Below, piece after piece: positions 37,338 to 54,662 of a stretch of DNA of 64,000 bases. A model generated the notes under the pieces. The model did no database searches and was not told the DNA's origin. It saw nothing but the letters and a program-made list of their open reading frames with translations. This DNA comes from a virus: the IMG/VR virus record IMGVR_UViG_3300013132_000023, positions 73,178 to 137,177 of that record; one strand, written 5' to 3'. A program made the position numbers and the translations under genes. The stretch's first letter is position 1; every line of letters starts with the position of its first letter.

Positions 37338-37339
37338 AT

Positions 37340-37570
37340 TTAAGTTCCAAATCCAATAAAAGCTCTGCCATCGTGGCAGAGTTCGTCAATGGATCCCATA
37401 GTGTCCGTGTAGTATACTCGCACTCCGTGCGAAATCAAGTTCTTTTTTAGCAAATCTTGAATGACCTCTTCTGCTGCGTTCGTGATAGACATACCACCAA
37501 TCGCAGGACTGAGATCTTCAATCCAAATTGCGTTTTTTTCTTGACGTACTACGTCGTAAGCAAATCTCAT
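37340..37570 (-). CDS. Hypothetical phage protein
   Basis: SITNAAEEVI, YYTDT.G. Confidence 0.6.
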   Translation of the reverse strand: MRFAYDVVRQEKNAIWIEDLSPAIGGMSITNAAEEVIQDLLKKNLISHGVRVYYTDTMGSIDELCHDGRAFIGFGT

Positions 37571-37739
37571 TTAGTTCCTCACGCCACTTGTTAGCTATTT
37601 TGTTCGCTTCTTTAAGCGAATTACAGGTTGCTCTATACAATACCCAATTGTTATCCAGTATATGTACGACCCTTACTTCGCAATCATAAACTTCTATTCT
37701 TAGTACGCTAGCAAGATTTTTTATCATCCTATTTTTCAT
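37518..37739 (-). CDS. Hypothetical protein
   Basis: Coupled to cca stop. Confidence 0.45.
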   Translation of the reverse strand: MKNRMIKNLASVLRIEVYDCEVRVVHILDNNWVLYRATCNSLKEANKIANKWREELNEICLRRSTSRKKRNLD

Positions 37740-38983
37740 TGACTCCCCTTAAGGGCATGAACGCGAGCTTGCTCCATTTTCTGAGCGATCTTTTCACCGT
37801 TCTTTAAATGAGCAAACTGGTGTCCTTTGACTTGTCTAATGACTGCGGCGGCTTCAAGCAAACGATCCCCTTGTGGGTACGGATTGTTTGCGTGCAGCGG
37901 ACCCCGGCCTCGTGCGTCAGCCTTTGCGGCCATGACTACGCGACGAGCTACCAAATCACCCTGTAAGGTTCCAAGTCGCCCTAGCAAGCGAACTTTTGTC
38001 GTTGCCTTTAGCTCTTCGAACTTGTGGATATTCAGATGTTCTCGCGACGCAAGGACGCCAATCTTACGATGCAGACTAGGAGTCCGCAAGCGATCACACA
38101 TAGCATTAACCAAAGGTACTCCAAGAGCTTCATGATTGTAGTGGTGTGGGAGATTATGGTCGTCCGTAACTGCCTTTCCAAGGTCATGCACGAGAGCAGC
38201 AAACATCGTTTCGTCGTCTGCACCCATGTCGCGAGCACGATCAATGACTTGCAACGTATGCACGTAAGCGTCACCTTCCGGATGATGCTTTTCTGGTTGA
38301 ATGCGACCCTTTAGGGCGGCGATTTCTGGGAACGTAATTTCTAAAGCACCCAGCCTATCGAGTGCTTCAAAGAAACAAGACGGTCGTTGCGTACGAAGGG
38401 CCTTTTCAAGCTCGCCCCATACGCGTTCGCCCGGTTCATTAGCTAATTCAGCCAATGCTGGCCGAGCAGCTTCAATCAATTCATCACTGATTGACATGTC
38501 TAATTGAGCAGCGAAACGAGCGGCACGCAAGATACGCACCGGATCTTCTCCGAAGTGGTTGCCAACTGGACGCAGCACCTTGTTTTGAAGATCTCTAATT
38601 CCGCCGTAAAGGTCAATGATTTCTTCGGTGAATGGATCTAAAGCCATTGCGTTAATCGTGAGGTCACGACGACGCAAATCTTCATCAAGTCCTACGTTAT
38701 TCGTATCGCATTCGAAAGCATGGTAGCCCCCGCCAATCTTGCGTTCTTTTCTAGCAAGAGCGACTTCAATCCCGTTCACCAAGAATACAGGGAACTTTGC
38801 ACCAACGACGCTATCGAAACCAGCCGCATGGAACTGGTTTTCCGATACGCCAATTACTACGATATCCACGTCCTTAGGATTACGCCCTAGGAGTAGGTCT
38901 CGTACGTAACCCCCGACAATATAGGGGCAACCCCCCATCGCTTTGATGCGATGGCAGAGTTCTAGATGCTTACGATGCTTCAT
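37736..38983 (-). CDS. cca: Multifunctional CCA-adding enzyme (with HD domain)
   Basis: VGGYVRD, DVD, DLRRRDLTINAMA, EDPVRILRAARF, HHPEGD..HT, LVHDLGK. Confidence 0.92.
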   Translation of the reverse strand: MKHRKHLELCHRIKAMGGCPYIVGGYVRDLLLGRNPKDVDIVVIGVSENQFHAAGFDSVVGAKFPVFLVNGIEVALARKERKIGGGYHAFECDTNNVGLDEDLRRRDLTINAMALDPFTEEIIDLYGGIRDLQNKVLRPVGNHFGEDPVRILRAARFAAQLDMSISDELIEAARPALAELANEPGERVWGELEKALRTQRPSCFFEALDRLGALEITFPEIAALKGRIQPEKHHPEGDAYVHTLQVIDRARDMGADDETMFAALVHDLGKAVTDDHNLPHHYNHEALGVPLVNAMCDRLRTPSLHRKIGVLASREHLNIHKFEELKATTKVRLLGRLGTLQGDLVARRVVMAAKADARGRGPLHANNPYPQGDRLLEAAAVIRQVKGHQFAHLKNGEKIAQKMEQARVHALKGSQ

Positions 38984-38997
38984 ACCGACAGTATACC

Positions 38998-39330
38998 CTA
39001 TCGCAGGTCTTTTGTGTGCTTAAAACGGCTGCATTTTGTAACAAAAGCTACCAGGATCGGCACGTTTGAGGCAAAATCTTCCGGTTGCCAGAAACACATA
39101 GCCTTAACATGTTCTTGTTCTAGAATATGTTCTACAATTCCCGGCTGTTGACCTTGGTCTTCATGTTCGTCGTCTACGTGACTAGCAAATGGATCATCTG
39201 TACCTTGTAAATCCAAAATGTTTGGCATTACGGGGTGGACAATCTTTTCACTGGCCTTTTCTTGCACGCAAATACCGTATTGGCACTTCCAACACAGACT
39301 TTCTTCTGCCTTCGGCATTTCGCTATTCAT
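38998..39330 (-). CDS. Hypothetical protein
   Basis: CWKC...C...C. Confidence 0.55.
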   Translation of the reverse strand: MNSEMPKAEESLCWKCQYGICVQEKASEKIVHPVMPNILDLQGTDDPFASHVDDEHEDQGQQPGIVEHILEQEHVKAMCFWQPEDFASNVPILVAFVTKCSRFKHTKDLR

Positions 39331-39778
39331 TTGGGAAGATACTCGTGTTCGTCCACTCGTGTTCGTCCAAGTGTGGTTGGTAGTCGCTAATGTGACGTTC
39401 GATAACACTCAAGGGGACGTTATGCTTGTTGCGACCAAGCAAGACATTAGCGTTCCAAGGACGTGGAGTGCAAATCATTTCGGTCTTGTAACCCAATTCA
39501 CCAGCAAGCTTAAAATAGGGCTCCATTTCCCAATGCTTGATGAAAGTATTTGACACAATCACAAGCGGTACGCCATTTTCCATTTGCGTACGAACTTGCT
39601 CCTGATTCCAGGCGTGTGCCCTAGGGAGTTTCTTGGGATCAAACGAGTAGCCGTCTTGAGTCATGAAATACTGATCCGTTTCATGAACACTAGAACGAAC
39701 ACCGTCTCTTTGTCCCAGGTGACGTGCAATCGTACTCTTACCGGAACCGCTTGGGCCTCTCAAAAGAATCAGTTTCAT
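39323..39778 (-). CDS. AAA_33 / N4BP2-like polynucleotide kinase
   Basis: LRGPSGSGKST, ETDQYF, AHAWNQ, VSNTF, RNKHNVP. Confidence 0.85.
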   Translation of the reverse strand: MKLILLRGPSGSGKSTIARHLGQRDGVRSSVHETDQYFMTQDGYSFDPKKLPRAHAWNQEQVRTQMENGVPLVIVSNTFIKHWEMEPYFKLAGELGYKTEMICTPRPWNANVLLGRNKHNVPLSVIERHISDYQPHLDEHEWTNTSIFPNE

Positions 39779-39817
39779 CTGTTGCTAGTATAGCACGATC
39801 CACAAGCCGGTCAAGCA

Positions 39818-39922
39818 AAAACTCGTCTCTCCGAGAAGTCACGCCTAAATCTTATTTGGGAGTACGGCTACTCCTGATAGGCTCGTTAGCCTTCTACACC
39901 CTGGCGTTCGGATAGAACTCGC
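39818..39922 (-). ncRNA. Candidate structured RNA downstream of ssb
   Basis: CGCC/GGCG closing helix, hairpins GGC-taacga-GCC and GGAGTA-gccg-TACTCC, 3' CTCG-gagaga-CGAG then U-tract. Confidence 0.4.
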
Positions 39923-39924
39923 GA

Positions 39925-40350
39925 CTAGAAAAGCTTTCCGTCGTCTGAATCAGCGGTTCTAGGCTTGCTGCCCTTACTGCCAGCCTTCGTCATTTTTTCT
40001 TCTTGACCAGATTCTTCGGCACGTCCGTTGCCGCCACTAACGAACGAGAAGCCATCGAAAGTATTAAGGCGAACTTCCAGCTTCGAACGCTTTTCGCCAG
40101 TCTTCTTGTCTTCCCAGCGGTTCTGGGTCAATTGACCATTGACGATGATTTGCTTACCTTTCTTGAAATGTGCAGCGATGGTAGTAACTTGCTTACCAAA
40201 CGCAACACAGTCTACAAAGGTCGTTGTTTCTTTGTCGCCAAACCCGTTGTTAATCGCAATGGTAAAACGAGCGACGTTATTTTCTTCTCCCATAATCTTG
40301 GGATCGTCAACGAGATTGCCCTGTAAGGCTACAACATTCAAATTACTCAT
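39925..40350 (-). CDS. ssb: Single-stranded DNA-binding protein
   Basis: N.V.L.GNL..DP, FTIAIN, FVDCVAFGK, KG.QI.V.GQL...RW, acidic C-tail ending LF. Confidence 0.92.
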   Translation of the reverse strand: MSNLNVVALQGNLVDDPKIMGEENNVARFTIAINNGFGDKETTTFVDCVAFGKQVTTIAAHFKKGKQIIVNGQLTQNRWEDKKTGEKRSKLEVRLNTFDGFSFVSGGNGRAEESGQEEKMTKAGSKGSKPRTADSDDGKLF

Positions 40351-40378
40351 AGTATTTCCTTTTGTTTCGTTACTTGGT

Positions 40379-40744
40379 TCAAACGCCAGCAATGGCTCGT
40401 TTTTCAAAAATGACTTCTTGTAGAGCACTTTCACGAGTTAGGGTGCCTGCATCAATACGTTCCTTTTGTTCTTGGGAAACGCGGAAACGACGAGCTACGC
40501 CAACGGCAGCAGCCACGCGTTCTTCAAAATTCTCAAGCGTCAGGCCGTCTTCAAGATACACCGAGTCAGGAATTTCGGGACGACTACGCTTTTGAAGTTC
40601 TGCAAGTCCTCCGCGTTCCAAGAACTCCTGGAAAGCTTGTTCGCGAGTTAGTGTTCCAGCGTCCATACGAGCCTTCTGCTCTTTTGAAATGCGGAATCGG
40701 AAGCCAGTACGTTCGGTGAAGTTGTTGAGTGTGAGATCGTTCAT
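40379..40744 (-). CDS. Two-repeat protein of unknown function
   Basis: LTL.NF.ER...RFR.S.EQK.R.DAGTLTRE.A.QE twice. Confidence 0.75.
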   Translation of the reverse strand: MNDLTLNNFTERTGFRFRISKEQKARMDAGTLTREQAFQEFLERGGLAELQKRSRPEIPDSVYLEDGLTLENFEERVAAAVGVARRFRVSQEQKERIDAGTLTRESALQEVIFEKRAIAGV

Positions 40745-40886
40745 GATGCTTATGTTATGACGGGTTAGGTTTGTTATGTAAGGTGTTTTTTCTGAATTTC
40801 TGGTTGTCGTAAATTGTTGTTTTGTCCTAATTTAGAATCAGGGAAGGTATGCGTTCTGGACTTGACCTACACAGAACATTGGATGT

Positions 40887-41096
40887 TTATAGAGTTTCAT
40901 TTGGATCGATTGTGAAAATCGCCTCCGGGCACTTTAGCGATTCGCTATCGTCACCCTCGTAGTAACAAACGCCATAATCAAGGCTGTAACTAATGGTGGC
41001 ATTTGGGTGCTTTTTAACGATCTTTTGAAGACGTTCTATCAGATTTGATATCTTGCCTTCAAAGTCATAGGCAGTGTATGTTTCTAAACGTCCCAT
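40887..41096 (-). CDS. Hypothetical protein
   Basis: Coupled to ligase stop. Confidence 0.5.
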   Translation of the reverse strand: MGRLETYTAYDFEGKISNLIERLQKIVKKHPNATISYSLDYGVCYYEGDDSESLKCPEAIFTIDPNETL

Positions 41097-42211
41097 TAGT
41101 GATACTCCGTTCCGTCCTTGCGAGTTAGATAGTCGGGCGAAATGATCTTGAAAACCATACGCTTAGGGTGCGGGTCTAGTTCTCCCTTGCTCCACGTCAA
41201 TTCGTCGTACATAGGACGAACGACAATCCCTTCTCGAATGTGTCCATCTTCAAGGGTGGTGTTTCCTTGTGCCATTTCTAGCAGTGTTTCGTATGACAAC
41301 ATGCCACCACTCAAGAACGGCACAAGCGGCAATCTTACCTTATTGCAAATGTGAGTTAGTGCATGATGATTGAGGTATTCACCATTGATAGCAATGTCGA
41401 ATACACGATATCCCTTCTTGTTCTTGGCCCCGTAGTGCAGGTCTTGGACACCAGCACCATAGATTTCGCCAAAAACGATTAGTGAGTTCAGTGGACAACC
41501 AGTTCCGCCCTCTGGATTTTCAATTGCATCGATAGCCCACTCAAGTAGCTTATCAAGTGCTTCGGCGTGTAGCTCGAAAGGAAGACCGTAGACTCCACAG
41601 TCGTTAGGGTCACGTTGCGTACGATGTGTACCTACAACCTTTTCAAGGTAATCACTCATGCCTCCGTTTTCAGGATCAGGAGTACGTACCCAGCCAACAC
41701 GGCTATTTGTACCGTGGAGCTTTTCAGTGACAACCAACGGTATGCTGTAATTAAGAGCTTCTGGGAAGTTACGAAGATTCTGCATATCCGTGTAATGATG
41801 GAACAACGGATGCTCTCTTCGCATTTGACCAGCAGACATACCTAAGGGCGGCGGGGGCGGTTCGTACTTTTCGATACCGTAGTGAGCAGCTAGGCTCGCA
41901 CCCGGTTCGGCTCCGCTGTCGTTAGGAACGAGGAAACCAAAGCTTGCAATACTACGCAAACGAGCGGCCCGGACGCGTCCCATGTCACTGTCCTTCTTAA
42001 AGGACAGGTATTGAGTCACGCCCCACTTATCGGCCCAATCGCGGGGAACCATAACTTCCGGAGGAATGTGTACTACAATGTCTCCAACCTTGTAGTTACC
42101 TTTTCCAGACACAATGTCCCAGCCGCTTACGCGGCAGATTTCAAGACGATCAGCATTGGGATGCGGATTGATAGCGGTCACAACGACCGGAGTGATGATT
42201 AGTTCGCTCAT
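41096..42211 (-). CDS. RNA ligase, DRB0094 family
   Basis: N-terminal HPNADRLE OB domain, TEKLHGTN, FGEIYG.GVQ, FDI, REGIV, FKIIS..YL. Confidence 0.9.
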   Translation of the reverse strand: MSELIITPVVVTAINPHPNADRLEICRVSGWDIVSGKGNYKVGDIVVHIPPEVMVPRDWADKWGVTQYLSFKKDSDMGRVRAARLRSIASFGFLVPNDSGAEPGASLAAHYGIEKYEPPPPPLGMSAGQMRREHPLFHHYTDMQNLRNFPEALNYSIPLVVTEKLHGTNSRVGWVRTPDPENGGMSDYLEKVVGTHRTQRDPNDCGVYGLPFELHAEALDKLLEWAIDAIENPEGGTGCPLNSLIVFGEIYGAGVQDLHYGAKNKKGYRVFDIAINGEYLNHHALTHICNKVRLPLVPFLSGGMLSYETLLEMAQGNTTLEDGHIREGIVVRPMYDELTWSKGELDPHPKRMVFKIISPDYLTRKDGTEYH

Positions 42212-42729
42212 AGCTTTACAATTCTGCGTTCGTGGAGTCTAAGTCCTTCAACGTATTTATTTACAAAGTCGCGTTGTTCTGGCGTACACGGTGACCCCCG
42301 AGGGTCGTTGTGAGTAGTCATGATTGATCGATAACGTCTCTTAACGAACAACGGAATCTTGCGGTCTAGTCGCATCGTTGATCTGCGGTATGAACGTCTA
42401 TCTTCTCGTGGTCGTCTTTTCCAGAAGTGCTTAGCTACTTCAATTGAAGAATAAAAGTCGCCATATGCACTTGAATCCATTGTTTCGCTGTGACCGATGG
42501 GAATATCACAATCGTAGAAAATGATTCCCCTCTCGTATCCAGTTTCATCTTGAGGGGCGTCGTAGAACACCCACTTAGATTCGTGTATATCAGTTTCAGG
42601 ACTTCTTCGATAAATGACGTACGAGTAGCCAGTAATCTTGGTTTCGATCAATACGCCACCAAGAACCATATGCCAAATCGGAGTCTCTAAAGGACAGATT
42701 TCTTGGCTTGTGTTGTACTTGGTCTGCAT
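42208..42729 (-). CDS. Hypothetical protein
   Basis: 173-aa ORF behind TTGACA promoter. Confidence 0.6.
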   Translation of the reverse strand: MQTKYNTSQEICPLETPIWHMVLGGVLIETKITGYSYVIYRRSPETDIHESKWVFYDAPQDETGYERGIIFYDCDIPIGHSETMDSSAYGDFYSSIEVAKHFWKRRPREDRRSYRRSTMRLDRKIPLFVKRRYRSIMTTHNDPRGSPCTPEQRDFVNKYVEGLRLHERRIVKL

Positions 42730-42814
42730 GTCTCTCTATAATAACACAAGAAGCCGCTCTTGTCAAGATCACCAACAGAGAATTTGCGTTTTACGTTCAT
42801 TGTTTTGTTTGTAT

Positions 42815-42891
42815 TGGTGCCCAGGGCGGGAGTCGAACCCGCAAAATCTACATTCTAAGCGTAGCACGTTTGCCAGTTACGTCACCTGGGC
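42815..42891 (-). tRNA. tRNA-Leu(TAG), short variable loop
   Basis: GCCCAGG...CTACG-CTTAGAA-TGTAG ATTTT GCGGGTTCGACTCCCGC CCTGGGC ACCA. Confidence 0.92.
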
Positions 42892-42925
42892 ATAGTATGT
42901 ATTGTATCACATTGCATCAAGACTG

Positions 42926-43249
42926 TCAAGTCAAGGTCTCGGCAAGTTTGTTTGCGGCTAGCCAGCCGCGAGTAGTTGGCTCAAAGCGAGCAAAAGGACT
43001 GAACATGTACTTGTTTTCTGCAAAATGAGGATCAATTGACACTTGTCTCTTTAATGCAGCCATTGTTACGTTACGGTACAATAGGATTTTCCTGCCTTCG
43101 TAAGTTGTACAGTTTGGATACCGTATTTCTACAACCAAATTACCATAAATTTCAACAAATCGTATGATTTCGTAATGGTATGGATGTGGTTGAGAATTAG
43201 AAGACTGTCGAGAATCGTATGAACTCGACGACATTTTGAACATTCCCAT
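42926..43249 (-). CDS. Hypothetical phage protein
   Basis: YPNCTTYEGRKIL, DPHF, ARFEPT..GW. Confidence 0.65.
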   Translation of the reverse strand: MGMFKMSSSSYDSRQSSNSQPHPYHYEIIRFVEIYGNLVVEIRYPNCTTYEGRKILLYRNVTMAALKRQVSIDPHFAENKYMFSPFARFEPTTRGWLAANKLAETLT

Positions 43250-43258
43250 GTTTTTATT

Positions 43259-43344
43259 TGGTAGCTTCGGTGGGAGTCGAACCCACACGCTGATTAGGCA
43301 CCTGATTTTGAGTCAAGCGGGTCTGCCAATTCCCCCACGAAGCC
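43259..43344 (-). tRNA. tRNA-Leu(CAA)
   Basis: Cloverleaf, loop CTCAAAA, long V-arm, ACCA. Confidence 0.93.
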
Positions 43345-43563
43345 ATTCTGTTCAAGCAATTCTTCGGTCCCATCAGGATGCTCCAAATAGGCAAACCAAA
43401 TTTTGCATCCCATCCTATTGAAGTGTTCTCTATTCCTGCGATGTGCTTCACGAGCTTCTGCTTCTGTTTTGCGAATCATCGGGTCTCCAGTATCGCGAGA
43501 CGTGAACGTGTTACGGTGAATACCCCACTTTACAGTCCATACTTTGTTCGGATCAACCTTCAA
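43294..43563 (-). CDS. Hypothetical protein whose 3' end runs into tRNA-Leu(CAA)
   Basis: GAGG RBS; stop lies 51 nt inside the tRNA. Confidence 0.55.
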   Translation of the reverse strand: MKVDPNKVWTVKWGIHRNTFTSRDTGDPMIRKTEAEAREAHRRNREHFNRMGCKIWFAYLEHPDGTEELLEQNGFVGELADPLDSKSGA

Positions 43564-43587
43564 TCATACCTCGCACATTAGGGTTTG

Positions 43588-44061
43588 TCAACTCTTGGGC
43601 TCGTATTTACAGATGATTGCATCTGGAAAATACGTCTCTATGATCTTGGAATAAATATCCCAATTGCCGCCACCCAGACCACAGCCCATTTTGTATGGAA
43701 AGTAGAATTGTCCATTCCAATACTTGGATTCTGGATTTCTCCTTCGTGAATTTACAATTCGTTCAAATGCAGTCACGGTCGCGTCGTAGCTCGTCATGCG
43801 TTTCGTCCTTGAAACGTCGCCCTGGCCAAAAACGTTGGCAATTCTGATGGTTGGCGAAGCATTGAACATCCATACCCTGCCAATCAATTGCTCTTGACTA
43901 GTATCATATATTTGACAGTATTCACGGTACTTGATTTCAAGTTCGGGCCATTTAAGAGCGAAGCTCCTAGCGATGCCGCCCCCCATGATGCCTCGACAAT
44001 TGACTTGATGAAATAGAATGCCCTCTTCGAGGGCGAGCATGTCTTGTTCAATAATCTTCAT
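43588..44061 (-). CDS. Macro domain protein
   Basis: HQVNC.G.MGGGIA, IANVFGQ, PYKMGCGLGGGNW. Confidence 0.9.
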   Translation of the reverse strand: MKIIEQDMLALEEGILFHQVNCRGIMGGGIARSFALKWPELEIKYREYCQIYDTSQEQLIGRVWMFNASPTIRIANVFGQGDVSRTKRMTSYDATVTAFERIVNSRRRNPESKYWNGQFYFPYKMGCGLGGGNWDIYSKIIETYFPDAIICKYEPKS

Positions 44062-44068
44062 TGTATTG

Positions 44069-44157
44069 TGGTCCGCTCGGCAGGATTCGAACCTGCGATG
44101 GTGATTACTCACTCCAGATTAAAAGTCTGGCCCCTTCGGCCTCTCGGACACGAGCGG
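44069..44157 (-). tRNA. tRNA-Lys(TTT) with long variable arm
   Basis: CCAGA-CTTTTAA-TCTGG then V-arm GTGA-gtaa-TCAC; ACCA. Confidence 0.9.
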
Positions 44158-44207
44158 CGGTTACTCATTGTACACTAAGTATAACACGCCGTAGATGTGC
44201 TGTCAAG

Positions 44208-44283
44208 TGGTACTTCCACCAGGATTCGAACCTGGACGATTCGCTTAGAAGGCGAAGATGCTGGTCCGTTACATCATGGAAGC
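44208..44283 (-). tRNA. tRNA-Arg(TCT)
   Basis: TTCGC-CTTCTAA-GCGAA; ACCA. Confidence 0.93.
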
Positions 44284-44377
44284 ATATTATTCATTATCGA
44301 TTACTCTTTGAGCTTCGTCTGCAAGAGATTGAAGAAAGGCAATATTATTCTTGGCTTTTTCAAGAGAGACTAGTTGT

Positions 44378-44466
44378 TGGTGCATCCGCCAGGATTCGAA
44401 CCTGGGTTGGGTTTTCACCGTCCGATTAAGAGTCGGATGCCTTCGGCCAACTCGGCACACGGATGC
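44378..44466 (-). tRNA. tRNA-Lys(CTT) with long variable arm
   Basis: TCCGA-CTCTTAA-TCGGA then V-arm GGT-gaaa-ACC; ACCA. Confidence 0.9.
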
Positions 44467-44471
44467 GTGAA

Positions 44472-44548
44472 TGGTCGGGCGTGTTGGAATTGAACCAACC
44501 TAATGTCCTCCTTCCAAGGGAGGCGACCCTCCTTGAGTCCGACGCCCG
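44472..44548 (-). tRNA. tRNA-Pro(TGG)
   Basis: CCTCC-CTTGGAA-GGAGG; C1-G72; A37 instead of the usual G37. Confidence 0.85.
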
Positions 44549-44556
44549 TTTTATGT

Positions 44557-44632
44557 TGGTCCGCAGCGATGGTATCGAACCATCTGTCTCTCGGTTATCA
44601 GCCGAGTGCATATACCTTTATGCTTCCTGCGG
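44557..44632 (-). tRNA. tRNA-Ile(GAT)
   Basis: CTCGG-CTGATAA-CCGAG; G7:G66 mismatch. Confidence 0.85.
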
Positions 44633-44661
44633 AATGTTTTAATAGTTCCAAGATTCTTCTT

Positions 44662-45258
44662 CTAGCTTCTTGGTAACGTTGGCGGTGCAACGTATCGCAC
44701 AAGAAACCGCTTTGATTTTGCACGAGCAATGTACTTCTTGGGTAGCTTAAAATCACCGTTGTTACGAATTACATTAAGCATGATTGCACGCAAACGTTGC
44801 TCCGGTTCATCGTACCGACTTCCCCATTCACCGGCTTGTTGAAGAAGATGATGAATTGATTCATCGTCATTTGGATCCATAACACAACATTCAAACGCCG
44901 ATTCCATGAGTGTCATGTTGCGTTCTCCAAAGTACTTCTCAACACGAGGCCATATGTCGTAGTCTTTTGTTACAATTTCATAAACAGAGCACTTGTTCTC
45001 GATATTCACGAGAGATACAAAAGCCGCACCAAGAGCACACACCTGACATGTAGTCTTCTTGTTCTTCTTGAAGAAATCCTTGAACGATCCTGCGATCGTC
45101 TCATCATATGCACTCATGTCATTGCGTAACCATGAGTTTAGTTCAGGAGAATCCACTTGGACATACGTTCCAGGCGTTGCCTTGTAACGATTAAAACGAA
45201 TCTGAGCCAGAACATCCTGGGCGATCTTCACACACATCCGACGATTTCGACGAGTCAT
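44662..45258 (-). CDS. Hypothetical phage protein
   Basis: IAQDVLAQI, CQVCALGAAFVS, RLRAIMLNVIRNNG.F. Confidence 0.7.
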   Translation of the reverse strand: MTRRNRRMCVKIAQDVLAQIRFNRYKATPGTYVQVDSPELNSWLRNDMSAYDETIAGSFKDFFKKNKKTTCQVCALGAAFVSLVNIENKCSVYEIVTKDYDIWPRVEKYFGERNMTLMESAFECCVMDPNDDESIHHLLQQAGEWGSRYDEPEQRLRAIMLNVIRNNGDFKLPKKYIARAKSKRFLVRYVAPPTLPRS

Positions 45259-45285
45259 ATTTGTTGTTATTGTTGTTGTTATTGT

Positions 45286-45372
45286 TGGCGGAAGGTTAGG
45301 GAATCGAACCCTAGAGGCTTTTTACACCCAGCCGTTTTCAAGACGGTTTCCTCGACCTACCGGACACCTTCC
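45286..45372 (-). tRNA. tRNA-Ser(TGA)
   Basis: Loop CTTGAAA, long V-arm, G73, CCA. Confidence 0.92.
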
Positions 45373-45836
45373 AAATTTTTCACATCTGCTGGAAAGAGAT
45401 ACTTAGTGAGAACTTCACCAATCCCACGATCCAGAATAACCGCGAGCAGCTTGTTATGGTCTCCCTCAAACGGGCCGCTCATGAGTTGATCATACCACTT
45501 ATACCAGTGTTCGTCAAGAACAATCTCGACTGGCTGTCCTGGAACGTGCTCGAAATAGTCGGCATCGGTTTTAGGGGCAGCACGCACCTGAATAGTAATT
45601 CCGCTTTTACGAGAAGACTGGTCTTTTACCGGGACGATCTTGTCAATCGGCGGCAGTATGCCAATCCCAAGTGCGTCGTTAATGCGTTCAAACAAAGCCT
45701 CAAGAGGCGTTAACCCCTTTGTCATTTCTTCTTTCGTGCGTTTGAATCGCTTGGCTCCAGTTACGGTCTTGTAGCTTTCGAGACAAGTGATTTGCTTTGC
45801 TTGTTCTTGCGTAATGTCGTTCATTAAAAACTCCAT
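45357..45836 (-). CDS. Hypothetical protein; stop inside tRNA-Ser
   Basis: Contains TG.KRFKRTKEE...GLT..EA motif like 40379-40744. Confidence 0.65.
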   Translation of the reverse strand: MEFLMNDITQEQAKQITCLESYKTVTGAKRFKRTKEEMTKGLTPLEALFERINDALGIGILPPIDKIVPVKDQSSRKSGITIQVRAAPKTDADYFEHVPGQPVEIVLDEHWYKWYDQLMSGPFEGDHNKLLAVILDRGIGEVLTKYLFPADVKNLEGVR

Positions 45837-46402
45837 CCCAAATTGATCATATACATTTCGCAATCCAACTCAGGATTGATGATGAAAATGTCTACGTCTT
45901 GATTGAAGAAGTGGCGTCGATATTCGACTCCCACAAAGATGTTGTCTGTAAAGAACCAAGACGTACCAAAATTGACATATGGTGCGTAAGCTTGACCACG
46001 ATCTTGCGGAGTGCCAGCGTAACTCAAATCTACCTGAGTTTCAAGTTCAAACGAAGACATACCGCCGCTTGCCGACACTTGCCACGAATCCGTGACCATC
46101 CAGTTCTTTCGCAAACCCAAATACACTTCTTGAACAGTGGTCTTTGTGCTGTCTACGCGACGATTGATATACACATCGTCATTTGACACGTCCTGGCTTT
46201 GCATAAAACCGAACTCAGGTCCGAAGCCATCTTTTCCAGCTAGGTCAATACTGCCACCCAGCACGTTCGTTTGCTGGTCAGTTGATTCCCAATCGCCAGA
46301 ATCTTGAAAATCGCGAACGCCAACCCCGACCTTCGCGTTAGGGGCCATGCGGCAGCTAGTGACAAGCGTAGCAAAAGTCAGAACAGAGAGTAAGTGCTTC
46401 AT
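45824..46402 (-). CDS. Outer-membrane beta-barrel protein (OmpA/OmpW-like)
   Basis: Signal/lipobox VTSC, alternating beta strands, PYVNFG, C-terminal INLGWSF beta-signal. Confidence 0.75.
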   Translation of the reverse strand: MKHLLSVLTFATLVTSCRMAPNAKVGVGVRDFQDSGDWESTDQQTNVLGGSIDLAGKDGFGPEFGFMQSQDVSNDDVYINRRVDSTKTTVQEVYLGLRKNWMVTDSWQVSASGGMSSFELETQVDLSYAGTPQDRGQAYAPYVNFGTSWFFTDNIFVGVEYRRHFFNQDVDIFIINPELDCEMYMINLGWSF

Positions 46403-46446
46403 ATGATCTATTGTACCACACGTTTGTTCGTTGTCAAGAAAAAGTT

Positions 46447-46538
46447 TGGCGGTAGGTGTAGGATTTGAACCTACGGAGGTTTTAAAGCCCCGCTTCTTTA
46501 GCAAAGAAGTGCCTTAGGCCAGACTCAGCCAACCTACC
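46447..46538 (-). tRNA. tRNA-Ser(GCT)
   Basis: CTTCT-TTGCTAA-AGAAG, long V-arm, GCCA. Confidence 0.93.
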
Positions 46539-46543
46539 AATTA

Positions 46544-46618
46544 TGGAGCCCCGTGAAGGATTCGAACCTGGACAAAGAGATTCAAAATCTCTGGTGCTAG
46601 CCGTTACACTATACCGGA
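46544..46618 (-). pseudogene. Chimeric tRNA-Gln(TTG)
   Basis: Intact D and anticodon arms (AGAGA-TTTTGAA-TCTCT), but T-stem CCAGG/CCTTC and acceptor TCCGGTA/ACGGGGC pair poorly. Confidence 0.7.
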
Positions 46619-47092
46619 AATAATCAATTGTTTCTGTGTAGGCCATACGTATTCCATTGTAGGGTCTTCGATCCAATTAAATTGACCGTAATAGACAGGA
46701 TCTTTGCGAAGCAAGTTTGCACGATGTGAAGCATGAAGCTCAGACAATCCAATCCAAGGCGGCATTTCAATGTTTGAAGAAATTGGTCCTGGTCGCATGG
46801 TGTTCTCGTATCCGCGATTAATCCATTCCGCAATAGCTTCATTCATATACGAACGTAACGCTTCATTATATCCACGCCACATAACTGCTGCCGGGTGATT
46901 TAACCATCCTTTTTTCAAAGGACTGTTTTTCATAAAACCTTGATCAATACGCCATTGACGTTCAGTCAAAGCCCATTCATCGCCATTTACAATCAACAGT
47001 TGAAATGCTTCAACACGTTGTTTGCCGAGACGACGATAATCTAAACACGAAAGAGACTTAGTAAAGTCTGAAAAAGGAAGAAATGTTTGCAT
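46604..47092 (-). CDS. Pyrimidine-dimer DNA glycosylase / MSMEG_6728-like
   Basis: MQTFLP...F..S...LD.RRLGKQRVEA.Q, W.NHPA..MWRGY, H.SHR.NLLRKDP. Confidence 0.85.
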   Translation of the reverse strand: MQTFLPFSDFTKSLSCLDYRRLGKQRVEAFQLLIVNGDEWALTERQWRIDQGFMKNSPLKKGWLNHPAAVMWRGYNEALRSYMNEAIAEWINRGYENTMRPGPISSNIEMPPWIGLSELHASHRANLLRKDPVYYGQFNWIEDPTMEYVWPTQKQLIISGIV

Positions 47093-47093
47093 A

Positions 47094-47306
47094 TTACATC
47101 TTGGTGATGCAACGATCAACACCCGTCAAAAACAAGGCAAGAATAATCACTCCTAGAATGATTGCCACAGGAATCCAAAGCGGGGCGAGCACCCACAGCC
47201 AAGGCCAGTTAATAATGTTGCCAAGCTTGAGGCCGATGAAAAGAATGGCCAATAGGCCAGTAAAGCCAACACCGCCCGAGCGAACTTTGATTTTTTGATT
47301 AGACAT
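47094..47306 (-). CDS. Small two-TM membrane protein
   Basis: GVGFTGLLAILFI.LKL...I.W.W.WVLAPLW. Confidence 0.75.
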   Translation of the reverse strand: MSNQKIKVRSGGVGFTGLLAILFIGLKLGNIINWPWLWVLAPLWIPVAIILGVIILALFLTGVDRCITKM

Positions 47307-47393
47307 TGGATTGTGTTTAGGTTGAGGTTCAAGTTTAGTAGTAACAACCACAGTATATCATGTCTCCTGGAGTTGTCAAGTGAAAATTAACGT

Positions 47394-47468
47394 TGGCGGG
47401 CCTACGGGGAATCGAACCCCGATCTTCTATTCGACAGACAGATATTCTAGCCTTTGAACTATAGGCCC
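47394..47468 (-). tRNA. tRNA-Asp(GTC)
   Basis: TCTGT-CTGTCGA-ATAGA; GCCA. Confidence 0.92.
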
Positions 47469-47475
47469 ATTGTTT

Positions 47476-47550
47476 TGGTGCCTCCCCCAGGTAACGCTCC
47501 TGAGCCTCCAGTATTTCAAGCTGGAATGCAGACTTCTACACCAGGGAGGC
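47476..47550 (-). tRNA. tRNA-Phe(GAA), atypical T-loop AGCGTTA
   Basis: Acceptor GCCTCCC/GGGAGGC, loop TTGAAAT, ACCA. Confidence 0.78.
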
Positions 47551-47624
47551 GGATCTTCTAACAGGATAATGTTTCCGAGTCGCACGTCTCTGTGCTTCTG
47601 ATGCTTTCGCCATGATTTTGTTTT

Positions 47625-47700
47625 TGGGGTGCCTAACGAGTATCGATCTCGTACCTGGAGATTCACATTCTCCCGTGCAGGCCACTACACTATAGACACC
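47625..47700 (-). tRNA. tRNA-His(GTG)
   Basis: G-1:C73, GGAGA-ATGTGAA-TCTCC, T-loop ATCGATA. Confidence 0.88.
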
Positions 47701-47707
47701 GCTATGA

Positions 47708-47785
47708 TGGTAGCCACAGCGGGATTCGAACCCAGCACTTTACAGATTTTAAGTCTGTTGACTCTGCCGATTGGTCTACGTGGCC
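47708..47785 (-). tRNA. tRNA-Leu(TAA), short variable loop
   Basis: ACAGA-CTTAAAA-TCTGT then 5-nt variable loop; ACCA. Confidence 0.88.
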
Positions 47786-47836
47786 ATAAGTTGTTTGTTT
47801 TCAAAGCTGTACGCTATTCGCGAATAGCGAATGTAT

Positions 47837-47928
47837 TGGTCCGCAGGGTGGGATTCGAACCCACGTATTTCGCATATCAGGCGATGACTGATCATAAATC
47901 AGGGGGCTTACCGCTAACCGACCTGCGG
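47837..47928 (-). tRNA. tRNA-Ile(TAT) with long variable arm
   Basis: CTGA-TTTATGA-TCAG, V-arm TCGC...GCGA, acceptor CCGCAGG/CCTGCGG, ACCA. Confidence 0.82.
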
Positions 47929-47958
47929 AAAAAGTTTGCCCCCAGGACAAAGGAAGTC

Positions 47959-48093
47959 CTAATTGTACCTGATACGATCTTCACCTTCTTCTTCGAACCA
48001 TTCTTCGGTCTCGAAGTCCTCGGCGACGACGCGGTAATCATACACTGCGTCCTCGTCCGTGTCAAGTGTTGTTTCGAAAGATTCTTCTTCCAT
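47959..48093 (-). CDS. Highly acidic 44-aa peptide
   Basis: MEEESFETTLDTDEDAVYDYRVVAEDFETEEWFEEEGEDRIRYN between two tRNAs. Confidence 0.45.
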   Translation of the reverse strand: MEEESFETTLDTDEDAVYDYRVVAEDFETEEWFEEEGEDRIRYN

Positions 48094-48098
48094 TGTAT

Positions 48099-48191
48099 TG
48101 GCTCCGAGAGTAGGACTCGAACCTACGGTGGGGGAATTTCTCCCCTTCGCATTAACAGTGCGATGCGTGCTACCAACTCCGCAACCTCGGA
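48099..48191 (-). tRNA. tRNA-Asn(GTT) with long variable arm
   Basis: TCGCA-CTGTTAA-TGCGA, V-arm GGGGA-gaaat-TCCCC; U1-A72, G73, CCA. Confidence 0.9.
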
Positions 48192-51203: not shown

Positions 51204-51289
51204 TGGTGCCAGCAGCAGGATTCGAACCTGCGACGCCTTTTGAGTCACGGTTTACAGCCGCGTGCCATCGACCACTCGACCATACTGGC
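51204..51289 (-). tRNA. tRNA-Tyr(GTA)
   Basis: CGCGG-CTGTAAA-CCGTG, long V region, ACCA. Confidence 0.93.
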
Positions 51290-51717: not shown

Positions 51718-52740
51718 CTACGATTTCTTCGGTCGCTTGCAGTTTTTAGCGTGCTTCTTGCCACCCTTAGCCCCGCAGTACGTGCAGGCCGCACGCTTCG
51801 GAGTCTTAACAGCAACCTTCGGAGCATCAGCCACGTCGTCGTATTCATCCAGGGGACAGTCGCCGAAATCCAGGCCCATGTCTTCATCCAACTCAGGCAC
51901 GTCGTCCTGGTACTCTTCGGGCTGGACGTTCACGGCAACGTACAGAGGTTCCTCCATGATTCGTTCGCAAATATCCACGACCTCGTAACGACACACGCGA
52001 AGCTTCTCGCAAGAATGGTCGCGAGGAACCGATACCGCATCACGAGGATTAACCTTAACAAGAACAAGCTTGCCATCGGAGCTAGCAAAGTCACTGGCGT
52101 ACTTGTGCGTGCCAACGTGGAAACCAGTTGAACAAGCTGCGTTCGTGTCGGGATCGACTTGTTCACGCGGCATTTCGTTCACAGAACCAATGCTGTTATC
52201 GAACGTTTGAGTATGACGATCCTTGAAGTCGCTCGTCAAGCCCTTGTACGCCATAAAACACCCATCGTGCGTGATAGGGAAGTTGCCGTGCTTGAGGAAG
52301 TCGTACAATTCGTTTCGCGAACGCTCATTCGGGTTCTCCATCAAGTTAGCAAGGAAACGAGCCAGCGGCTTATAAGGAAGCTGTTGTCGCACGAAACTGC
52401 TAATCGTGTCAGCAATCACGCTATGCACTTGTTCGCCATTGTAGAACACTTCGCCATATTGGTTAACCGTCACGCCCTCAATTCGCTTTTCAAGCGAAGC
52501 CGGAATGTCGAGCAATGGATCAAGACGATCAGATTCATTATTAGTGAGACACGCTACAATTGCATTGTAGTTAGGATGCGTCTTGCCAATAGAATGCGTT
52601 CTGCCATTCCAGGCGATTGTGATGTTTCCATCGTTCGTCATGATGAACTTAGGAGTCGGCTTTTCAGGCAGACCTACATCAATAAGAACTTCTTCTTGAT
52701 TGATGCCAGTCAGTCGTTTGATAATGTCGAAGATACTCAT
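51718..52740 (-). CDS. rIIB: rIIB-like protein
   Basis: FLANLMENP, ELYDFL, PIT.DGCFMAYK, CSTGFHVG, VKVNPRDAVSVP.D, KLRVCRYEV. Confidence 0.9.
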   Translation of the reverse strand: MSIFDIIKRLTGINQEEVLIDVGLPEKPTPKFIMTNDGNITIAWNGRTHSIGKTHPNYNAIVACLTNNESDRLDPLLDIPASLEKRIEGVTVNQYGEVFYNGEQVHSVIADTISSFVRQQLPYKPLARFLANLMENPNERSRNELYDFLKHGNFPITHDGCFMAYKGLTSDFKDRHTQTFDNSIGSVNEMPREQVDPDTNAACSTGFHVGTHKYASDFASSDGKLVLVKVNPRDAVSVPRDHSCEKLRVCRYEVVDICERIMEEPLYVAVNVQPEEYQDDVPELDEDMGLDFGDCPLDEYDDVADAPKVAVKTPKRAACTYCGAKGGKKHAKNCKRPKKS

Positions 52741-54662
52741 TGTTGGCCTTTCAGTTTGATGTATTCAACAACGTCTTCCTTGTGGACGTGTTGCAGATTG
52801 ACGTGAGACAGGAGTGGATAGGTAGCGTCGAAAACGTCCTTGAAGTTAGGAGCTTCTGCCACCTTGATACCAAACATAGTGATCATACCACGAGTAGTGT
52901 TACCAAGGTCGGTAGATTTTGAGAATTTTGCGAGATCATCACAGACGGGCGACAGACCAACGATCCATTCCACGAAAGAATTGGGGGTCGAGTAGCTGTC
53001 GAAGCCGTGATGATATCTAGCCAATTGGTAAATATCGAGAGCGTCAACTGCATCTTGAGCATATTGACGAGCTTCTTCTTCCAGATCGGGCAGACCAAGC
53101 TCGGTGCGAATGCGGTCATAGTATGCCTCGGCGATACCGTAGACTCGCTCGTAGCCCATTTGTCTGGCAATCGTGATGGCAACTTCGCCATCGTATTCTT
53201 TGCCACCGATCTTACACATAAGACCTTTGCGAGGAACCGCAATGGCATCTTTTACGTCAATTTCAGCTTCCGCAATGGACCGCCAGCAGTCAGAACGAAA
53301 GTTGCCGCGTCGAGCGGACTTAATGTAAGAACGCTCGCCTGCGGAGACTCGTCGAGCAGCCCTCGGGGGCTCGGGCAGACTAGACAACGTAGCAGTAACA
53401 CCACCGAATGTCTCTTCGAACTTTGCACGATCTTTGATCGTAGCAAGATAGAAGACGCCACGTTGACTGTTCAAGAAGTGACGAAGCTTATTCTTGTCAG
53501 ATTGCTTAAGTTCACCCTCCACGTCACACTCAACAATCACGTAGTGAGTGTCGGCATTAGGATTAAGTTCCGTCTGCCAGCGATCATGACCAATGAAAAT
53601 CTTGTTCTTTCGAAGATCGACACGCTTAAGCGAGTAGTCGGCAGTTTCCGTCTTAATGGTACTCGTTGCGTGCTGGAAGGAAATCACGCTGCGATAGAAA
53701 CGAAGAGCCTTAATCTTTTGAACCAAACAAATATGCTTGCCAAGATCATCTTCCACGGTTTTAGTGACTTCACTTGATGCCGCGTCAATAAGGCGTTGAA
53801 TATTAGCCTTCGTGTCTTCGCTGTAGTGAAGTTCTTCGCGACTAGCGGCAAATTCAACTTGGCCGATATCCACAAAGAGAACCATCGCGGCATTATCGCC
53901 CAAAATGTGCCTGAAGTGTTGCATGGCAACCGGGTAACAAATATTACCCATAACCACGTTGACACGACTCGTCAAAAAAGCACCGTGCATTCCGCAATCG
54001 TAGAGTTCGTAACCCTTTCCCTTGAAACGGGGCTCGACTGACGGAAATTCAACCTTGGCACCAACAATCTTCGGACGCGTCGGGAAGAAACGATAGACGC
54101 GTTGAGCCGCAGCCTGAAACTGGTAGGCGTCACCTTCTTGGATATTGATGCGAATTTCAACACCATTAGGCTCACTAGATTCTTGAGTGGAAAGCAAAGC
54201 AATGCTCGGCTCTCCTTGTTCATTCTTGAAAGCAGAATAGGTGTACATGTTACCGTTCCAGTACGACGTAATCGTAAACTGATCGGTATACGCGAAAGGC
54301 GACTTGCTTCCCAGGCCGAGAGCACCAACGAACTCGTTAGATTCCGAACGAGAACTAGCGAAGTAAGTCGTGTAGATGTGTTCGACCTGATCGGGAGAAA
54401 GACCCGTTCCAAAGTCACGAATCGAGAAAAACGGAGCAAAGCTGTTCGGCAGATGGACCTCGAAAGGACGGTCTTGCGTACCAGCTTCGACTTGAGCGTC
54501 CCATGCGTTCGTGGAAAGCTCACGAACGATAGCCAAGCGAGTGTCTGTGTAAAGCTTGCTTGACAGAATGTGAAACGCCTTGGCGTTTGCAGCGATCTTG
54601 AACTTCGCTTCCGGGAAGCCCCCGGAGCGAGTAACAGCGTTGGTGGTTTGTTGGAGTTGCAT
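52737..54662 (-). CDS. rIIA: rIIA-like protein (GHKL N-domain)
   Basis: KAFHILSSKLY, AIVRELSTNAWDA, IRDFGTGL, GALGLGSKSPFAY, SREELHY. Confidence 0.92.
   Translation of the reverse strand: MQLQQTTNAVTRSGGFPEAKFKIAANAKAFHILSSKLYTDTRLAIVRELSTNAWDAQVEAGTQDRPFEVHLPNSFAPFFSIRDFGTGLSPDQVEHIYTTYFASSRSESNEFVGALGLGSKSPFAYTDQFTITSYWNGNMYTYSAFKNEQGEPSIALLSTQESSEPNGVEIRINIQEGDAYQFQAAAQRVYRFFPTRPKIVGAKVEFPSVEPRFKGKGYELYDCGMHGAFLTSRVNVVMGNICYPVAMQHFRHILGDNAAMVLFVDIGQVEFAASREELHYSEDTKANIQRLIDAASSEVTKTVEDDLGKHICLVQKIKALRFYRSVISFQHATSTIKTETADYSLKRVDLRKNKIFIGHDRWQTELNPNADTHYVIVECDVEGELKQSDKNKLRHFLNSQRGVFYLATIKDRAKFEETFGGVTATLSSLPEPPRAARRVSAGERSYIKSARRGNFRSDCWRSIAEAEIDVKDAIAVPRKGLMCKIGGKEYDGEVAITIARQMGYERVYGIAEAYYDRIRTELGLPDLEEEARQYAQDAVDALDIYQLARYHHGFDSYSTPNSFVEWIVGLSPVCDDLAKFSKSTDLGNTTRGMITMFGIKVAEAPNFKDVFDATYPLLSHVNLQHVHKEDVVEYIKLKGQQ

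Follow-up and report, generated by a model that had tools for sequence, protein, structure and literature searches.

In bacteria, a long variable arm is normally limited to the transfer RNAs (tRNAs) for Leu, Ser, Tyr and Sec. The subject of this report is a cluster of phage tRNA genes in which the tRNAs for Lys, Asn and Ile(UAU) carry such an arm and two of those for Leu lack it; it lies in a 64,000-nucleotide (nt) stretch of viral DNA, here called the window (positions 73,178 to 137,177 of the IMG/VR virus record IMGVR_UViG_3300013132_000023). The closest described systems are the phage tRNAs that counter host nucleases acting on tRNAs (tRNases). AriB, the nuclease of the PARIS defense, depletes Lys(UUU), Thr(UGU) and Asn(GUU), with a minor effect on Thr(CGU), His and Pro (PMC12409363, PMC11464382); it cuts between positions 40 and 41, and an AlphaFold 3 model places its second monomer on U16-U17 of the D loop (PMC12409363). 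Phage T5 encodes Lys, Thr and Asn tRNAs with point changes and thereby escapes AriB (PMC12409363, PMC11464382). P2-OLD cuts the anticodon stem, with Thr(UGU) as its first target and Lys(UUU) and Asn(GUU) as further ones, and ligases cannot repair the product (PMC12445682); a bacterial Schlafen also cuts Lys(UUU) (PMC13056530). The tRNAs of T5 and the phage Thr(UGU) that counters P2-OLD resemble those of the window in that the same isoacceptors are concerned, that they are encoded by the phage and that they belong to large tRNA clusters (PMC11464382, PMC12409363, PMC12445682), and a common role may be presumed, namely the replacement of host tRNAs destroyed by defense tRNases. The published escapes consist, however, of U39A, A41C and U16C, single changes in the anticodon stem or the D loop, or of a shorter anticodon stem, all on a class I (short-loop) body, whereas in the window the whole scaffold is class II and resistance is presumed.

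Long arms outside their usual families have been described elsewhere. The nematode nev-tRNAs combine a long arm with a Gly(CCC) or an Ile(UAU) anticodon, like the phage tRNAs (PMC3333845); however, they are eukaryotic, have a Leu-like identity and are charged with Leu in vitro, whereas the phage tRNAs keep cognate discriminator and acceptor features and serve standard codons. The allo-tRNAs and SelC*-type tRNAs (Mukai et al., PMC5389517), retrieved by metagenome mining, are bacterial and phage long-arm tRNAs with non-Ser anticodons; they are marked by 8/4 or 9/3 acceptor/T branches together with a D arm of the Sec kind and presumably accept Ser, whereas all four long-arm tRNAs of the window have, in the ARAGORN folds, an acceptor stem of 7 base pairs (bp) and a T stem of 5 bp (7/5) and hence fall outside that group. 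In the opposite direction, the type I tRNA-Leu of Streptomyces coelicolor has a short variable loop, the shape found in the window, and is still leucylated by LeuRS (PMC6614811); it is cellular, confined to a single lineage and served by a LeuRS with a special domain, whereas short Leu tRNAs are frequent in phages (17/31 in the clade and 27/70 in the wider set described below). A literature search that covered few subscription journals found no account of phage tRNAs for Lys, Asn, Thr or Ile with a class II fold, and such tRNAs go unmentioned in reviews, whether on non-canonical tRNAs or on phage tRNA evasion.

ARAGORN finds 26 tRNA genes in the window, 24 of which lie on the minus strand between positions 42815 and 51289 (Table 1). 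An earlier note, made from the letters of this stretch alone, had described long paired arms in Lys(UUU), Lys(CUU), Ile(UAU) and Asn(GUU) and short variable loops in Leu(UAG) and Leu(UAA), and both descriptions were borne out. Each of the four tRNAs named first has a variable region of at least 10 nt with its own stem-loop, which is the definition of class II used here. ARAGORN gives these regions 15-22 nt and shows the stem as paired in both Lys tRNAs and in Asn(GUU); the Rfam tRNA model, whose gathering score is 29, assigns 55.3 bits to Lys(UUU), 52.7 to Lys(CUU), 48.4 to Ile(UAU) and 50.3 to Asn(GUU), and places the extra 12-16 nt of the Lys and Asn tRNAs in the variable region; and ViennaRNA, which knows no tRNA model, predicts for each of the four a distinct hairpin at the variable arm (z-scores -1.7 to -2.5). 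The D arm of a class II tRNA has a 3-bp stem and an enlarged loop (A14, G18G19); in the ARAGORN folds that of the Lys and Asn tRNAs has three stem positions, one of them unpaired in Asn, and a loop of 10-11 nt, and that of Ile(UAU) has a 4-bp stem and a 7-nt loop, a region that ViennaRNA leaves mostly unpaired. As the note had also stated, the stems of the four genes are intact and their CCA end is encoded; the latter holds for all the window tRNAs discussed here, short-arm and long-arm.

The variable loops of the two short Leu tRNAs measure 5-7 nt; in Leu(UAA) the value is 5 nt if a bulged U is put in the T stem (ViennaRNA) and 6-7 nt in ARAGORN. With their Leu anticodon, short loop and A73, and with the Leu-type D-loop motif AAUYGGCAGA seen in Leu(UAA), they have the features of type I tRNA-Leu. 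Normal long arms are kept by Leu(CAA), both Ser tRNAs and Tyr.

The added arms follow a recognizable design. In a set of 95 unique long-arm Lys/Asn tRNAs, 89 variable arms form a hairpin, which typically consists of one unpaired nucleotide, a stem of 3-4 bp, a tetraloop and 3-4 unpaired nucleotides on the 3' side. The strict form of this template is fitted by 70 of the 95 arms, with 47 distinct stems; among these 70, the loop is GNRA in 48 and the tail is 4 nt long in 46, most commonly CAUC, CACC or CAAC. G-C, A-U and U-A pairs occur at each position of the stem and C-G at three of the four, while strands re-partnered at random pair only 52.5% of the time. From seven sequences of the clade of this phage, RNAalifold recovers the arm with compensatory changes at two of the four pairs. 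The proposal that the arms are selected and not accidental is thus upheld by their conservation, by their covariation and by their recurrence in relatives (14 were compared) and in many viral contigs, and the structures and distribution of the swapped-arm tRNAs are well supported.

The unpaired 3' stretch sets these arms apart from those of Ser, since it has 3-4 nt in 77 of the 89 Lys/Asn hairpins and 0-1 nt in 50/62 phage Ser tRNAs. In the canonical class II tRNAs of phages the tail has 3 nt in Tyr (17/25), 2 nt in Leu (34/56) and, with longer stems, 1 nt in Ser (42/62), and the geometry of the Lys/Asn arms is nearest to that of phage tRNA-Tyr and unlike that of Leu and Ser. In the window, likewise, Tyr(GUA) is the canonical long-arm tRNA whose body and arm geometry come nearest to those of several remodelled tRNAs. 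Nearest-neighbor similarities of the bodies (acceptor, D, anticodon-stem and T parts) are noisy, at 0.6-0.8, and suggest only weakly that the bodies of several long-arm Lys, Asn and Cys tRNAs may be akin to tRNA-Tyr; in the same noisy comparison the long-arm Pro, Met, Thr and Cys examples are most like the class I orthologue of each.

The distribution of such tRNAs was followed in IMG/VR by a scan for the T-loop consensus and then a given anticodon loop 21-32 nt away (21-36 nt for Ile(UAU)), a spacing possible only with a long arm, and each pattern was scored by the share of its listed loci (79-80 per pattern) at which ARAGORN finds the expected long-arm tRNA. The patterns need one particular T loop and A37-A38, and the frequencies are therefore relative, not absolute. 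Among the matches listed, a real long-arm tRNA was present at 72/80 loci for the Lys/Asn pattern (90 tRNAs), at 65/80 for Thr(UGU) and at 50/79 for Ile(UAU), against 13/79 and 0/80 for the control patterns Arg(UCU) and Ala(UGC). The loci ascertained by the Lys/Asn pattern among these matches hold 940 tRNAs (the wide set), in which the unascertained families richest in long arms were Thr(UGU) (10/35), Met (8/44), Cys(GCA) (6/22) and Ile(UAU) (3/11), with none in Thr(GGU) (0/13) or Thr(CGU) (0/11). Long arms also occur at low frequency in the Phe, Val, Glu, His and Arg families. The opposite change affected 27 of the 70 Leu tRNAs, and armless Ser (0/51) and armless Tyr (0/27) were absent from the wide set.

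In 596 gigabases of prokaryotic genomes, the Lys/Asn pattern led, among the matches listed, to long-arm Lys/Asn tRNAs at 7/80 loci and to no tRNA of any kind at 47/80; six of the seven loci are dense arrays of 6-14 tRNAs in at most 8 kilobases, which look phage-like. The Ile(UAU) pattern was found in 0/401 and 3/401 sampled genomes of two bacterial phyla, and none of these three belongs to the phage family. The long-arm class swap apparently forms a large, phage-restricted set that is rare in cellular genomes. Separately, two genomes sampled from the phylum of a Saprospiraceae metagenome-assembled genome contain class II tRNAs with a UAU anticodon (L404:1470-1558 and L405:1488-1575). Their acceptor starts with GGAG, their D loop is long and their variable arm has a stem of 5-6 bp and one unpaired 3' nucleotide, a plan like that of tRNA-Ser; they might insert Ser at AUA. 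Another observation concerns two long-arm tRNA-Met(CAU) from IMG/VR (L108 and L049), which have an initiator-like C1xA72 mismatch and a variable loop that repeats 6-7 nt of their own anticodon loop; in these two tRNAs only, this hints that some arms may have arisen by duplication of the anticodon hairpin.

The preferred explanation, held tentatively and with slightly less than even confidence, is that these phage tRNAs, which are real and decode normally, are charged with the cognate amino acid and have a body plan reshaped to escape host tRNases; of this, we infer the cognate charging and the resistance to nucleases. Charging would most likely be by the cognate synthetases of the host, and the codons served are the normal ones, AAA/AAG for Lys, AAY for Asn, AUA for Ile and CUA/UUA for Leu. 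Lys, Asn and Ile(UAU), joined in the relatives by Thr(UGU), Cys and Met, have been rebuilt on a class II scaffold. It has a long paired variable arm and, in Lys/Asn, a D stem drawn with three positions and a D loop that is long. The Leu tRNAs have lost the arm. Toprim nucleases of the kind of PARIS AriB and P2-OLD would sever the anticodon stem of the host Lys(UUU), Thr(UGU) and Asn(GUU), and AriB, as modelled, would grip the tRNA by the face between position 40/41 and the D loop. The extra helix at positions 44-48 and the class II D loop would alter this gripped face and spoil the docking; the phage copies would survive while the host copies are destroyed, and the neighboring RNA ligase, kinase and CCA-adding enzyme would mend the residual nicks. 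Arms would be gained only where the synthetase reads the anticodon and the discriminator (Lys, Asn, Thr, Ile, Cys, Met) and lost only for Leu, where some LeuRS, at least, can do without the arm and leucylate a type I tRNA-Leu (PMC6614811). SerRS and TyrRS do read the variable arm.

The evasion part of this explanation, which the earlier note had offered as one of two alternatives, fits the context, as RNA-repair genes stand beside the cluster and the isoacceptors most often rebuilt as class II in phages, Lys, Asn and Thr(UGU), coincide with the published targets of AriB and P2-OLD. The two Lys tRNAs of the window keep the host-like U36-A-A-U-C40 motif, which T5 mutates, and the T5-type A39 and C41 are absent from Lys(UUU), which has U39-C40; as weak evidence, this retention suits another route of escape. 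Among phage Lys tRNAs the motif is found in 17/30 long-arm vs 14/42 class I members for UUU and in 11/15 vs 16/37 for CUU, a difference that is absent in Asn (19/50 vs 11/31) and in Thr (4/11 vs 10/33); the higher retention is suggestive, for Lys only, and is confounded by the ascertainment of the set.

Several points weigh against escape from tRNases as the purpose of the arm. The class IIb synthetases, LysRS and AsnRS, approach the tRNA from the variable-loop side, where a long arm could impede charging. Arms are also gained by Cys(GCA), Met(CAU) and Ile(UAU), which are not reported as AriB targets, and long-arm Arg(UCU) tRNAs also exist, at 13/79 loci among the matches listed. The known escapes from AriB and OLD are anticodon-stem substitutions, and the word "variable" is absent from PMC12409363 and PMC12445682. 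In addition, the link with Toprim nucleases comes from E. coli systems, which may not be those of the host of this phage, and PMC6614811 implies that some LeuRS fail to charge a type I tRNA-Leu. Finally, the arm is gained or lost between orthologues of close relatives, as described below, and such flips would also fit weak constraint.

The genes on both sides of the cluster point to a putative counter-defense and RNA-repair island (35526-44112 and 51718-55468) that wraps it (Table 1). Rnl1 is present in 13/15 clade records and in 0/14 control cellular genomes. The combination of Rnl1 ligase and kinase is the answer of phage T4 to the tRNA-Lys nuclease PrrC, as PMC12409363 also states. The window resembles T4 in having an Rnl1-type ligase and a kinase, with a CCA-adding enzyme in addition, beside its cluster; unlike T4, it shows repair and tRNA remodelling together. 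The double cuts of the OLD type cannot be repaired by ligases (PMC12445682), which would leave room for a second strategy based on shape. The macro-domain open reading frame (ORF), as listed, overlaps the 3' part of Lys(UUU), and an in-frame ATG occurs just downstream of the tRNA. Between 42700 and 51500 the tRNA strand has eight promoter-like sites, one of them directly upstream of Lys(UUU), that match at 11/12 positions with TTGACA intact as the -35 box, which suggests a host with a canonical sigma-70. An ORF at 45824-46504 is predicted to encode an outer-membrane beta-barrel, which suggests a Gram-negative host.

Table 1. tRNA genes of the window that are discussed in the text, their variable arms and the neighboring features
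Feature	Position	Strand	Remarks
tRNA-Lys(UUU)	44069-44157	minus	89 nt; class II scaffold; A73; encoded CCA
Lys(UUU) variable arm	44097-44113	minus	1 nt + 4 bp + GUAA loop + 4 bp + CAUC tail
tRNA-Lys(CUU)	44378-44466	minus	89 nt; class II scaffold; A73; CCA
Lys(CUU) variable arm	44406-44420	minus	1 nt + 3 bp + GAAA loop + 3 bp + CAAC tail
tRNA-Ile(UAU)	47837-47928	minus	92 nt; long variable region; A73; CCA
Ile(UAU) variable region	47865-47886	minus	4-bp stem, 7-nt loop CUGAUAU, 5-nt tail
tRNA-Asn(GUU)	48099-48191	minus	93 nt; class II scaffold; U1-A72, G73, CCA
Asn(GUU) variable arm	48127-48146	minus	5-bp stem, GAAAU loop, CACC tail
tRNA-Leu(UAG)	42815-42891	minus	class I shape; 5-nt variable loop; A73
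tRNA-Leu(UAA)	47708-47785	minus	class I shape; 5-7 nt variable loop; Leu-type D loop; A73
tRNA-Leu(CAA)	43259-43344	minus	canonical class II; internal comparison
tRNA-Tyr(GUA)	51204-51289	minus	canonical class II
tRNA-Ile(GAU)	44557-44632	minus	class I; 5' acceptor strand CCGCAGG
T4 Rnl1-type RNA ligase	35526-36626	minus	PF09511
CCA-adding enzyme (tRNA nucleotidyltransferase)	37736-38983	minus	with HD domain
P-loop kinase	39323-39778	minus	AAA_33; PHROG match to polynucleotide kinase
Second RNA ligase	41096-42211	minus	PF09414 + PHA02142 OB domain
Macro-domain protein, ADP-ribose 1''-phosphate (Appr-1''-p) phosphatase-like	43588-44112	minus	GTG-start ORF
Sigma-70 promoter-like site	44178-44206	minus	TTGACA, 17 nt, TATACT; 11/12; directly upstream of Lys(UUU)
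rIIB + rIIA	51718-54662		
Metallophosphoesterase	54710-55468	minus	

It is unlikely, but worth weighing, that the arm is instead a site that recruits or assists a synthetase, a modification enzyme or the ligase, kinase and CCA enzymes of the phage. The GNRA loops of 48 of the 70 template-fitting arms are classic docking motifs, and repair enzymes adjoin the cluster; however, such loops may just stabilize a short stem, and any partner would be conjectural. The long-arm Ile(UAU) tRNAs form a separate family, with a 4-6 bp stem and a 7-nt loop that has a conserved AGAU and is most commonly CAGAUUA; among the matches listed, GAU occurs in the variable loop of 46/50 unique members, across 22 distinct stems, and A73 is present in 49/50. 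The IleRS of E. coli charges tRNA-Ile(UAU) poorly (PMC3575796), and the GAU-containing variable loop could be a surrogate for the GAU anticodon that an ordinary IleRS needs. The window gene is a divergent member of the family, whose loop CUGAUAU reads like the anticodon loop of Ile(GAU) and, with its 5-nt tail, resembles the whole anticodon arm of that tRNA; the 5' acceptor strands of the two window genes are identical and the 3' strands differ at one position. Against an assisting role of the loop, the commonest version, CAGAUUA, is not a faithful anticodon loop because it has neither U33 nor a purine at 37. Furthermore, the class II fold directs the variable arm away from the anticodon-binding site of IleRS.

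The identity elements of tRNA-Ile include A73, C4-G69, A37 (as t6A) and A38. The window Ile(UAU) has A73 and C4-G69, and it departs from the A37/A38 combination and from an anticodon readable by IleRS (GAU or lysidine-AU), as it carries G37 in the anticodon loop UUUAUGA and UAU as the anticodon. Because of G37 and of a variable loop that reads as an Ile(GAU) anticodon loop, two alternative cloverleaves are possible for this gene. A cloverleaf whose true anticodon arm would be the GAU hairpin, with the UAU hairpin inserted, was considered and is countered in the wider family only, not for the window gene: in the wider family the UAU arm is canonical, since the commonest variable loop is without U33 and without a purine at 37.

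A further explanation, distinctly unlikely, is drift, in which fast-evolving phage tRNAs tolerate arms wherever the synthetase is indifferent and the arms have no adaptive role. The relatives bear on this point. No near or distant DNA relative spanning the odd tRNAs was found among GenBank phages, whose terminases are at best about 25% identical to that of this phage (Bacillus and Microcystis phages), and a search with the pyrimidine-dimer glycosylase ORF from inside the cluster found nothing; there being no close GenBank phage, the comparison rests on uncultured IMG/VR contigs. The large terminase retrieved 20 IMG/VR relatives at 35-77% identity, and 14 of the 16 relative records searched contain tRNAs. 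ARAGORN made 256 calls in this clade set, the window genome (G000) included; three with an undetermined anticodon were dropped, and 227 tRNAs were parsed in the 14 relatives. Long arms are present there in Asn (5/13), Cys (3/5), Thr(UGU) (2/10), Met (2/17), Lys (1/12) and Pro (1/11) and in no other class I family among the 227. Leu is short in 17/31, Ser long in 13/13 (one of them a doubtful 73-nt prediction) and Tyr long in 5/6; A73 is found in 18/20 short Leu tRNAs of the clade, most of which have a Leu-type D loop.

In favor of drift, the presence of the arm differs between orthologues: in the conserved gene order Leu(UAA)-Ile(UAU)-Asn(GUU) the classes are I, II, II in G000 and I, I, I in G006, and the Cys tRNAs of G001 and G002 have a common acceptor stem and differ in the presence of the arm. 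The scattered long arms in Phe, Val, Glu, His and Arg point the same way. However, a stereotyped design and a conserved tail are common to very different phages, the stems covary, the isoacceptors are strongly biased (72/80 and 65/80 vs 13/79 and 0/80 loci among the matches listed), and cellular genomes are nearly devoid of such tRNAs.

Some tRNAs of the relatives are unusual in other ways. The sole short Tyr among those examined is a 74-nt class I tRNA-Tyr(GUA) in G008 (L032:15021-15094). G001 (L023:15946-16021) and G007 (L030:11893-11968) encode a class I tRNA with a CUA anticodon, labelled "Pyl" by ARAGORN and amber-suppressor-like, and no such tRNA occurs in the phage of the window. A 78-nt ARAGORN call in G004 (L028:6773-6850) combines an anticodon of four bases (gtat) with a variable region of 13 nt and may represent a Tyr-like tRNA whose anticodon loop is enlarged.

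The other alternative of the earlier note was that the arms lead to recoding, through mischarging by SerRS, LeuRS or TyrRS, and this was not supported. That class II bodies are charged by one of these enzymes, with partial recoding at Lys, Asn and Ile codons, is very unlikely. It would be consistent with an arm geometry nearest to that of phage tRNA-Tyr, with D arms that resemble the Tyr and Ser types, with the single step that separates GUU from the Tyr anticodon GUA and with G37 in the window Ile(UAU); in addition, the nev-tRNA-Ile(UAU) accepts Leu in vitro (PMC3333845, PMC4300185). The discriminators, however, go with the anticodon and not with the scaffold. tRNA-Lys is identified by U35, U36 and A73 and tRNA-Asn by GUU, G73 and U1-A72, whereas tRNA-Tyr has GUA, A73 and a long arm, and tRNA-Ser a long arm with 0-1 unpaired 3' nucleotides, G2-C71 and G73. 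Both Lys genes of the window, with anticodons UUU and CUU, have A73, as do 35/42 long-arm Lys tRNAs of the wide set; the Asn gene has GUU, G73 and U1-A72, and G73 is found in 41/48 long-arm Asn tRNAs of the same set, where 6/7 long-arm Cys tRNAs have U73. In long-arm Thr(UGU), among the matches listed, U73 is present in 48/62 and a GC start in all 14 that were printed. Despite their Tyr-like arm, the Lys and Asn tRNAs of the window do not belong with tRNA-Tyr, having the anticodons UUU, CUU and GUU and, in Asn, G73; nor do they belong with tRNA-Ser, as their tails have 3-4 nt and the window Asn has C2-G71. For Ile(UAU), A73 and the 5' acceptor strand it has in common with Ile(GAU) likewise count against mischarging.

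The meaning of the codons was assessed by a Codetta-like comparison of the phage DnaE with 104 homologues, in which residues were counted from homologues with less than 70% identity, and by a second comparison of the phage terminase with 18 relatives. The residue opposite AAA/AAG is K in 48-62% of cases (R coming next), opposite AAC/AAT N in 51-70%, opposite ATA I in 53-58% and opposite CTA/TTA L in 40-87%; these tallies are in line with those of control codons in both the early (DnaE) and the late (terminase) gene, with no excess of Y, S or L. The Lys, Asn, Ile and Leu codons thus have their standard meanings, which gives recoding no support. A class IIb synthetase is not encoded in any of 15 clade records, and host enzymes would therefore do the charging. 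The DnaE-type polymerase III alpha subunit is encoded at 60721-64026 of G000 (L002:6722-10027); several of its homologues, including P0026, P0035, P0051 and P0098, are 250-400 amino acids longer and have the intein domains PF14890 and PF14528.

Misassembly, decayed tRNA genes or mispredicted folds would be conceivable, as every sequence is a metagenome assembly, but the chance is minute and this possibility is effectively refuted already by agreeing contigs from other runs, by Rfam scores of 48-55 bits, by intact stems, T loops and CCA ends and by hundreds of covarying homologues. Within its IMG/VR virus record, which is 137,177 bp long and has an estimated completeness of 87%, the window takes up the 3' half, and three DNA runs labelled as lake-water metagenome contain 82-99% of the sampled words of the region. 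An assembly error is unlikely because contigs (X2 and X3) from two runs other than the likely source span all four long-arm genes with no differing letter listed inside them. No RNA run was listed as containing the tRNA region. Two variants occur in contigs of other runs, a 38-bp deletion at 44672-44711, inside the ORF at 44662-45258, and the exchange of an 88-bp stretch at 46911-47000 for 28 other letters in the glycosylase ORF; they represent population microdiversity outside the tRNAs.

The long-arm rule underlies tRNA identity and annotation, and these phages violate it systematically, by the gain as well as by the loss of arms; annotation software that takes the length of the arm as a guide to the isotype may give such genes a wrong label. 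The class II Lys, Asn, Thr and Ile tRNAs would also supply natural scaffolds, competent in translation, for the engineering of orthogonal tRNAs. A combined reading, possible although on balance doubtful, is that large phages repeatedly rebuilt Lys, Asn and Thr(UGU) so that the extra helix is armor for the anticodon-stem/D-loop face against Toprim-type and other tRNases, that the GAU loop of Ile(UAU) may be a surrogate anticodon for the host IleRS and that the remodelled set of isoacceptors would be a readable fingerprint of the tRNases deployed by the hosts. If the GAU loop does act in this way, AUA would be decoded without TilS. If the arm blocks tRNases, it would be a new structural counter-defense, beside the point-mutation escapes from PARIS, OLD, PrrC and retron effectors, and it would help to explain why big phages carry whole sets of tRNAs.

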